IMG/VR virus record: IMGVR_UViG_2681813004_000011 | Length of the DNA: 17,781 bases | Source: a virus | Lineage: Duplodnaviria > Heunggongvirae > Uroviricota > Caudoviricetes | Reading direction: 5' to 3' (one strand) | In this document: piece by piece, positions 15,828 through 16,124 of the stretch | Layout of the letters: every line of letters begins with the position of its first letter | Position numbering within the stretch: the first letter of the stretch is position 1 | Made by a program: the position numbers and the translations under genes | The notes under the pieces: generated by a model | What the model was told of the DNA's origin: nothing | The model's database searches: none | Seen by the model: only the letters and a program-made list of their open reading frames with translations

Positions 15828-15926
15828 TCACCACCAGCGTATCTGACCGATGAAATAACCGGAGGCCATAATCACAAACACCAGCCAGATAAGAATGAAC
15901 TTCCAGGTGGATAATTTTTCAGCCAT
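15828..15926 (-). CDS. Small hydrophobic peptide (32 aa), translationally coupled to Rz
   Basis: Not in the ORF track (below its size cut-off). ATG at 15926, translation MAEKLSTWKFILIWLVFVIMASGYFIGQIRWW, one predicted transmembrane helix. Its TGA stop is 1 nt from the Rz ATG. Confidence 0.35.
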   Translation of the reverse strand: MAEKLSTWKFILIWLVFVIMASGYFIGQIRWW

Positions 15927-16005
15927 CACTCGAATCTCCCGAATCAGTTTGCTAAAATCAAACACACTTTCTCCTTTGACTTTTCCAGAGTCAGGAAACA
16001 CAAAA

Positions 16006-16043
16006 CCCCGCTTGCAGCCAACAAACGGGGTTTTTACTTTTAT
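16006..16043 (+). terminator. Intrinsic-terminator-like hairpin, strongest on the plus strand, in the R-Rz spacer
   Basis: CCCCGCTTG-cagccaa-CAAACGGGG (8 bp plus one mismatch) followed by TTTTTACTTTTATT on the plus strand. On the minus strand the same stem is followed by a weaker UUUUGUGUUU. Confidence 0.45.
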
Positions 16044-16124
16044 TCACTTAGTTTTTGTCAGTTCGCAGGATTTCGTGTTATCCGTCCGTGTGAGCAAACC
16101 GCATTTTTCAGCAAAATATTCTGC

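Follow-up and report, generated by a model that had tools for sequence, protein, structure and literature searches.

The 17,781-nt stretch of DNA analysed here (IMG/VR virus record IMGVR_UViG_2681813004_000011, Caudoviricetes), referred to as the window throughout, carries a 298-bp spacer (15827..16124) between the gene for the endolysin R (16125..16658) and the gene for the inner-membrane spanin (i-spanin) Rz (15359..15826), and this spacer is occupied by a small gene of the family PHROG 6632 with a hairpin and a leader upstream of it. We show the 45-codon frame of this gene being under real coding selection, and we show hairpin, leader and open reading frame (ORF) forming one mobile unit with a structure conserved across hosts and insertion sites. 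The explanation we favour, with about an even chance of being right, is that the spacer is a portable late-operon cassette composed of a terminator-like hairpin, a structured leader and a GTG-start gene for a 45-codon single-pass inner-membrane protein, a small accessory of the late programme. The family is already catalogued (PHROG 6632, RefSeq WP_000459345.1) but uncharacterised.

The 45-codon gene, its hairpin and its joint to Rz

The features of the locus are as follows:

16125..16658, minus strand: endolysin R, 177 amino acids (aa) (Pfam PF00959 Phage_lysozyme, E=2.1e-24; annotated as lysozyme/rrrQ in identical E. coli loci)
N-terminal part of R, minus strand: weakly hydrophobic segment resembling a signal-anchor-release (SAR) domain, MNTKIKYGLSAAVLALIAAGASA (judged by the sequence itself and by PMC9239132, in which the SAR endolysin of phage 933W was used)
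16035..16124, minus strand: conserved non-coding flank of ~90 nt downstream of R, in which one patch is hypervariable and two small stem-loops are invariant (50 distinct copies aligned, RNAalifold consensus)
16002..16034, minus strand: A-tract, GC-rich hairpin with a 14-bp stem and U-tract, intrinsic-terminator-like, 5' edge of the cassette (terminator scan)
15966..16001, minus strand: leader with the small stem GACT/AGTC (15978..15992) and the Shine-Dalgarno (SD) sequence AAGGAG (15971..15976) (read from the sequence)
15828..15965, minus strand: small gene, 45 codons from GTG 15965..15963, VFDFSKLIREIRVMAEKLSTWKFILIWLVFVIMASGYFIGQIRWW (PHROG 6632, WP_000459345.1, selection analysis)
15926..15924 (ATG) to 15830..15828 (TGA), minus strand: 32-codon ORF within the small gene, possible internal start (conserved ATG at codon 14)
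15359..15826, minus strand: i-spanin Rz, 155 aa (Pfam PF03245, E=1.5e-48)
15421..15606, minus strand: outer-membrane spanin (o-spanin) Rz1, 61 aa, embedded in Rz (ORF list; lipobox LVVSAC by reading, mature part proline-rich)

The window comprises the late region of a lambdoid prophage of HK97-like type; it is a single co-directional late operon running from the lysis genes through the tape measure (ORF list, Pfam), and the genes discussed here all lie on the minus strand. In the Qin prophage of E. coli K-12 the genes rrrQ and rzpQ overlap without any spacer, and at one IMG/VR locus (L032) the spacer is -4 despite a near-identical lysozyme; the spacer of the window is therefore an insertion, in agreement with a preliminary description of this DNA, which had noted that R and Rz are normally adjacent or overlapping and had proposed an insertion of about 300 bp between them. 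R is presumably homologous to R of phage 933W, and the arrangement of Rz1 within Rz is likewise annotated in Sakai Sp5 and in phage SPN3UB.

The conserved start of the small gene is GTG 15965..15963 with the SD sequence AAGGAG (15976..15971) 5 nt upstream, and the same codon is a GTG or TTG start in other alleles. In identical E. coli loci the Prokaryotic Genome Annotation Pipeline calls a hypothetical protein of 45 aa, WP_000459345.1, and PHROG 6632 matches with E=1.4e-29, profile positions 1-45 of 45 covering residues 13-57 of a 57-aa ORF. The ratio of nonsynonymous to synonymous substitution rates (dN/dS) is 0.14 against the copy from Salmonella (L091) and 0.09 against that from E. fergusonii (L095), the range being 0.09-0.17, compared with 0.75-8.5 in the other two reading frames, which served as controls; the differences at codon positions 1/2/3 number 15/6/21 (Salmonella) and 7/1/17 (E. 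fergusonii). Purifying selection together with the PHROG match thus identifies the frame as a real gene and not as a chance ORF in 300 bp. The preliminary description had given a 32-aa hydrophobic ORF coupled to Rz, its stop codon 1 nt before the ATG of Rz; coupling, frame and stop position stand, but the product is larger, the 32 codons being the C-terminal part of the conserved 45-aa frame. The correct call for annotation is 45 aa from the GTG, in a gene which is often unannotated. On the plus strand a 95-aa ORF (15895..16182) runs across the spacer and the 3' end of R, and phage CP-1639 (AJ304858) has it annotated as a hypothetical protein. This ORF is probably spurious, being antisense to the selected frame and having poor selection statistics in the frame controls.

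An AlphaFold2 model built with 8 homologues (predicted local distance difference test score, pLDDT, 84.7) places helices at residues 4-17 and 20-44 with a break between them, the second one being hydrophobic and of transmembrane (TM) length (maximum hydropathy 2.51). The model suggests an N-terminal amphipathic helix followed by one TM helix and a 5-residue Trp-rich tail; the peptide would insert into the membrane, and its charge distribution points to an N-in/C-out topology. A profile search against 1.84 billion cluster representatives returned only 41 small proteins, and the 18 of these that were inspected are 42-54 aa long, with C-termini that vary and a common motif, SK-I-RE-R-M--L--W(K/R)F, at the N-terminus; the conserved part of the family appears to be the cytoplasmic helix and the membrane interface. 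The family is narrow, comprising Escherichia, Shigella, Salmonella, Citrobacter and some Pseudomonas phages. Searches of Pfam, NCBIfam and PADLOC gave no match for any of the small peptides at this site, and literature searches on small proteins encoded at the R-Rz junction, on small membrane proteins linked to spanins and on the Enterobacteriaceae microproteome returned nothing on these peptides.

On the gene strand the 14-bp stem of the hairpin is followed by the tail UUUUGUGUUU, and GC-rich stem, U-tract and conserved structure are those of an intrinsic terminator, termination itself being predicted. The hairpin covaries: across 8 divergent copies 94% of cells are paired and compensatory changes occur in 5 of 15 pairs, the covariation score of 0.262 compares with 0.095 in shuffles (0/500 reach it), and it drops sharply if the pairing is slid by one column or more. 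The terminator scan of 15300..16800 finds two terminator-like sites, no more than in shuffles (1.4 +/- 1.2). T-rich tracts flank the hairpin on both strands. A GC-rich hairpin with a plus-strand T-tract at 16006..16043 had been described as an antisense-oriented terminator; hairpin and T-tract are present, but the scan calls the minus strand and the stem is stronger there, with -21.2 kcal/mol for the sense vs -13.9 kcal/mol for the antisense fold in the window, because two G-U pairs turn into A-C mismatches on the plus strand. The sense-strand hairpin is the more stable one in 16 of 19 variants.

Homologous leaders with a CCTTG/CAAGG or CATG/CATG stem are present in the copies from Salmonella, Citrobacter, SEN34, Rac-SA53 and Pseudomonas (CATG/CATG in the latter), and in several alleles the predicted leader folds take in the SD sequence, which together with the GTG or TTG start suggests low translation. 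At the gene's opposite end the last codons and the stop, UGG UGG UGA (TGGTGGTGA), lie 1 nt before the AUG of Rz and form the SD-like sequence GGUGGUGA, so the insert restores an initiation signal for the downstream gene. Most enteric copies end in RWW-stop with the SD-like TGGTGGTGA, the ATG of the next gene following 1-18 nt on.

A mobile unit and a hypervariable junction

The unit has the same architecture throughout, i.e. A-tract, GC hairpin, U-tract, a leader of ~35 nt with a small stem, SD sequence, non-ATG start and peptide, and it is found behind at least five unrelated endolysins; that peptide ORF and hairpin belong together, as the preliminary description had it, is borne out by both travelling as one unit across hosts and insertion sites. 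The neighbours of the copies are:

SAR lysozyme and Rz: window and 80 of 80 IMG/VR loci
162-aa lysozyme and Rz: Salmonella (L091)
GH19 endolysin and DUF2514 spanin: E. fergusonii (L095)
138-aa endolysin and Rz: Citrobacter braakii (L099)
lysozyme and Rz-like spanin: phage SPN3UB
baseplate spike and wedge genes: Salmonella phage SEN34, Rac-SA53, pPE4 and an E. coli AB66 prophage (myovirus-type)
small-ORF cluster among tail genes, at 50% identity: Pseudomonas phage YMC11/02/R656

The AB66 copy keeps hairpin, SD sequence and GTG start and has a different leader. The Citrobacter unit begins ~20 nt past the stop codon of the endolysin gene, too close for a promoter of its own to fit in between. A promoter scan of 15300..16800 found no promoter-like site on the sense strand.

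The junction itself was surveyed in 80 IMG/VR loci, all with a lysozyme that shares >=94% identity with that of the window. The distances between R and Rz are:

-4 bp: 1 locus
~298 bp: 20 loci
331-336 bp: 2 loci
426-438 bp: 4 loci
478-500 bp: 16 loci
604 bp: 1 locus
642 bp: 12 loci
978-1013 bp: 14 loci
1174-1198 bp: 3 loci
1413-1426 bp: 4 loci
1898 bp: 1 locus
Rz not found: 2 loci

The insert therefore does vary among related lysis cassettes, from -4 to 1898 bp, and in E. coli the R-Rz junction is a cargo site of very high variability, at which 0-4 small one-helix peptides are encoded. The cargo comprises at least four one-helix peptide families (A, PHROG 6632; B, PHROG 4906; C, PHROG 1115; D, PHROG 4493), of which C and D are related, and unnamed ones, as well as antirepressor-like (Ant/KilAC-like) ORFs and two DNA methyltransferase-like ORFs, these being read by eye with Ant annotated in Sakai. 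Peptide arrays are found in loci L005, L006, L008 and L011-L089 and in Sakai (L090, 8383..8529, ECs_5707); a small peptide gene almost always stands directly before Rz, the Ant- and methyltransferase-like ORFs sometimes being inserted among the peptide genes. In the TM parts dN/dS is 0.09 for family C, 0.16 for family D and 0.59 for family B. The E. fergusonii locus holds a second, unrelated small TM ORF (MKESSNKTNLNTGGKMSEKGADRAGVILAVAALISALALLVWAASWVKWW; 2756..2908) upstream, with its own terminator-like hairpin upstream of it; this ORF ends in KWW-stop with the same TGGTGGTGA-T-ATG joint, and the family A cassette follows. This suggests that the joint may be a recombination point at which cassettes have been stacked.

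The spacer sequence is present in 2132 of 5426 complete E. coli genomes (1337 at >=80% coverage), with as many as 12 places in a single genome. It is also present in 323 phage records, among them many Stx1a, Stx2a and Stx2c phages and H-19B. The E. coli peptide is found overwhelmingly at the endolysin-spanin junction. A scan of species-representative genomes, which include one genome per species and in which a pattern beginning with M may also miss GTG and TTG starts, returned two loci only, from Escherichia sp. and Citrobacter braakii.

The gene order of the window is DUF1327-family ORF, lysozyme, spacer, Rz/Rz1, TonB_C lipoprotein, HNH, small and large terminase subunits, portal, protease-capsid and tape measure. 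In the 329-aa ORF directly upstream of the lysozyme gene (16695..17684, minus strand) a DUF1327 domain of the YdfR family (E=7e-39) at the N-terminus is followed by ~230 C-terminal aa that match no family, K-12 YdfR being only 103 aa long. Downstream of Rz, a predicted lipoprotein of 113 aa (MKRNLPLIILLSSLVMGC...; 14694..15035, minus strand) with a TonB C-terminal domain (PF03544, E=5.8e-15) takes the position of bor in lambda and Sakai Sp5 and could disturb TonB-dependent uptake. The sole clear plus-strand gene in that part of the window, convergent with the late operon, is a 74-aa YlcI/YnfO-family ORF (14338..14562), scoring 25.7 bits and thus just under the NCBIfam cut-off of 30.

Expression, function and alternative explanations

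As the unit leaves no room for its own promoter, we infer that it is transcribed only late, by polymerase that arrives from the late genes upstream and passes through the hairpin. In lambda, Q-modified polymerase reads through intrinsic terminators, and by analogy Q-antiterminated transcription from pR' would cross the hairpin in a lambdoid prophage. Hairpin and leader may hold the peptide, and the downstream genes, silent in the lysogen or keep them lower relative to R, and the SD-like GGUGGUGA at the end of the gene would give translation initiation back to Rz.

Concerning the function of this cassette we can offer a tentative guess, with the chances somewhat against it, that the product assists the late or lysis programme as a membrane-active accessory without being essential. 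The membrane events that accompany the triggering of the holin, the release of the endolysin or the action of the spanins may be what it tunes, possibly with isoforms of 45 and 32 aa, as in dual-start genes for holin and antiholin. The lysis accessory protein put forward in the preliminary description comes close to the evidence as regards a genuine small protein of the late/lysis operon; its restriction to lysis cassettes does not hold, given the copies between baseplate and tail genes, and the role in lysis is our interpretation. If the peptide modulates lysis, it adds a component to a pathway thought to be well understood (holin, endolysin, spanin), and this in phages whose lysis frees Shiga toxin.

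Several observations weigh against our explanation or parts of it. Copies also lie between baseplate or tail genes, so a role specific for spanin or endolysin is not required, and a reading of the peptide as a spanin-specific partner is weakened by the same copies. The peptide is dispensable, K-12 Qin and L032 being without it, and several copies of sister-family peptides are frameshifted. An efficient terminator between the baseplate genes of the myovirus-type phages would be polar, so the hairpin may not terminate there. Searches of Pfam, PHROG and NCBIfam revealed no similarity to holin, antiholin or releasin families (releasin as in PMC9239132). A ribosome profiling (Ribo-seq) study of small genes in Sakai (PMC5597208) lists nothing at R-Rz of Sp5; its cultures were uninduced and the result is hence uninformative. 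The methionine at codon 14, on which the second isoform would depend, is a conserved residue of distant homologues as well and need not be a start codon.

The best-surviving alternative, possible though rather doubtful, sees the peptide as accessory cargo unrelated to lysis, acting in superinfection exclusion (Sie), in blocking re-infection of lysing cells or in modulating a host membrane protein, with the junction merely tolerating insertions. The hypervariability of the junction, the Ant/KilAC-like and DNA methyltransferase ORFs found at it and the occurrence of the same peptide between baseplate or tail genes all fit such cargo, and Sie morons in late operons exist in Pseudomonas phages (bioRxiv 10.1101/2024.03.05.583538). 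However, classical exclusion would need expression in the lysogen, which is unlikely for a gene lacking its own promoter and having a terminator-like hairpin upstream; PADLOC gave no match, and the E. coli peptide keeps overwhelmingly to the endolysin-spanin junction.

A more far-reaching form of the lysis explanation is unlikely in our view, namely that the one-helix junction peptides are an unrecognised class of lysis regulators with dual-start isoforms, co-translated with the i-spanin and determining when or how sharply the holin is triggered, the SAR endolysin is released or the spanins bring about fusion; if true, the timing of toxin release in Shiga-toxin phages would be affected. The ATG at codon 14 bears on it, as it does on the two isoforms considered in our own explanation above: it is invariant in the 9 module copies compared, Pseudomonas included, and 17 of 18 distant homologues retain the methionine. 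A GGAG-like sequence (15936..15940) lies 9 nt upstream of it, and the codon for E10 is always GAG in module copies. Synonymous divergence (pS) is 0.26 in codons 2-14 vs 0.64 and 0.79 further on, i.e. 2.5-3x lower. Low pS and the invariant M14 and GAG are compatible with a second product of 32 aa.

That the RNA itself carries the main function and the peptide is secondary, the R 3' flank and the hairpin forming a small RNA (sRNA) derived from the 3' untranslated region or an element that stabilises or attenuates the mRNA, appears improbable. Its basis is the flank of ~90 nt, in which a patch of ~20 nt (16084..16102) varies strongly among otherwise near-identical copies (GCGGTTTGCTCACACGGAC, GACGTTGGCCAACGCGGGC, AAGGCATGGCCACGCGGGC) and is bracketed by the invariant stems AGCAGA/UUUGCU and GGAU/AUCC, resembling a variable seed on a conserved scaffold, with the terminator-like hairpin following. 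In Ant-type spacers (L016, L020, L021 and others) the first ~130 nt after R hold the same flank, then a different terminator-like hairpin, GGCACCGTAATGGTGCC, and then TTTGTCATTTCT; a hairpin after the flank is retained there and the structure is therefore kept although the sequence is replaced. A variable seed combined with a conserved terminator is known from prophage sRNAs, e.g. AgvB and AsxR (PMC4104026). Against this, the flank is partly present in the Salmonella copy and absent from the Citrobacter copy, so it is separable from the cassette, and in the baseplate and Pseudomonas copies a different sequence precedes the hairpin, yet hairpin and ORF persist. No promoter and no Rfam match were found for patch and flank (16035..16124), sub-threshold Rfam hits being generic terminators and none reaching the gathering score, and the gene strand has no promoter-like site. 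The known prophage sRNAs of EHEC and EPEC, AgvB, AsxR and PasA-D, are no candidates, since they lie upstream of the holin gene (AgvB, AsxR, PasA/C) or in structural operons and not at the R-Rz spacer. Two possible reading frames over the flank were discarded: an 8-codon mini-ORF (ATG...GGATAA), whose ATG is ATA in several alleles and which stops after 2 codons in the Salmonella copy, and a 24-codon TTG frame, conservation being at the nucleotide and not at the codon level.

A type I toxin-antitoxin (TA) locus, the layout first suggested in the preliminary description, is very improbable; it would consist of a membrane-toxin peptide and a plus-strand antisense RNA starting inside the ORF, crossing the ribosome-binding site (RBS) and ending at the bidirectional hairpin. 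The product is a small one-helix hydrophobic peptide well within the size of such toxins (45 aa, with <=~60 aa expected), it occurs in tandem arrays at this site, T-rich tracts stand beside the hairpin on both strands, which leaves termination of an antisense RNA conceivable, the SD sequence lies in a predicted stem in several alleles and is followed by a weak start codon, and synonymous divergence is low around the start region. The antisense promoter is where the case fails. The preliminary description had reported weak plus-strand candidates (GATAAT near 15911); our scan finds one site (15843..15872) with a score of 9/12, which is at chance level (1 found, 1.4 expected), and in this sequence-based test the numbers of antisense sigma-70-like sites are 0 in L091, 0 in L095, 0 in L009 and 1 in L180. 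The Salmonella, E. fergusonii and AB66 alleles have no hit and that of SEN34 is non-homologous, 4-5 codons away from the position in the window; over five alleles, with 0-1 weak 9/12 hits each, no antisense promoter is conserved. Synonymous sites in codons 15-45, where this promoter must lie, are near saturation (pS 0.64, 0.79), and the plus-strand hairpin is the weaker one in the window. Pfam and NCBIfam gave no toxin match (Hok/Gef, Ldr, Ibs, TisB etc.), and across the whole window Rfam gave no antitoxin (Sok, Rdl, Sib etc.) at the gathering score, with generic terminators only below it. The unit likewise has no space to hold a promoter for the toxin. The gene is apparently coupled in translation to an essential late gene and is co-directional within the late operon.

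It is just as hard to believe that the product is irrelevant and the ORF a translated leader bringing ribosomes to Rz past the hairpin, or a decaying remnant, as the 1-nt stop-start spacing, the SD-like TGGTGGTGA and the frameshifts in some sister peptides might indicate, given dN/dS of 0.09-0.17 over 45 codons with synonymous sites saturated in the C-terminal half and an amino-acid motif kept out to Pseudomonas phages at 50% identity.

Comparison with known systems

Dual-start holin/antiholin genes, such as those for S105/S107 of lambda and S68/S71 of phage 21, resemble the 45-codon gene in encoding a small membrane protein in a lysis cassette, in having two in-frame start candidates each with an SD sequence and in a stem-loop at the first start. 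In contrast to holins with their two or three TM helices the peptide has one, its candidate starts are 13 codons apart instead of 2-3, a separate class II holin gene is annotated upstream, past the end of the window, in identical E. coli cassettes, and the peptide is also found outside lysis cassettes. With hok/sok, ldr/rdl, ibs/sib and zor/orz it shares a one-helix peptide of hydrophobic character and 30-60 aa, the occurrence in tandem arrays and a translation that looks restrained, given the structured leader and the weak start. Type I loci stand alone, whereas this gene forms part of a late operon to which it is coupled, and neither a conserved antisense promoter nor an antisense RNA was found for it.

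The releasin gp25 of phage Mu (DUF2730) has 99 aa, N-out/C-in topology and a 73-aa C-terminal cytoplasmic domain (PMC9239132). Like it, the peptide would cross the membrane once and have a cytoplasmic domain, and its gene lies close to those for SAR endolysin and spanins, but there is no sequence similarity and no Pfam DUF2730 hit, and the peptide also stands beside other endolysins such as GH19. We therefore discarded an identity with releasin, the architecture differing from that described in PMC9239132 and DUF2730 being absent.

The cassette is finally to be compared with morons, of which bor and lom of lambda and gp15 of HK97 are examples. Like these, it is an extra gene lying exactly between late genes that are adjacent in relatives, with a terminator hairpin and high mosaicism, and morons often encode envelope proteins. 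A classical moron, as described for lambdoid phages (Juhala et al. 2000, cited in PMC4104026), is preceded by its own promoter and followed by a terminator, and the lysogen expresses it. The unit described here has no space for a promoter, the hairpin lies upstream and the 3' end is fused to the RBS of the next gene. Even if the product had no role in lysis, the cassette would show how a promoter-less gene enters an essential operon without polarity, because it brings its own RBS for the gene downstream.

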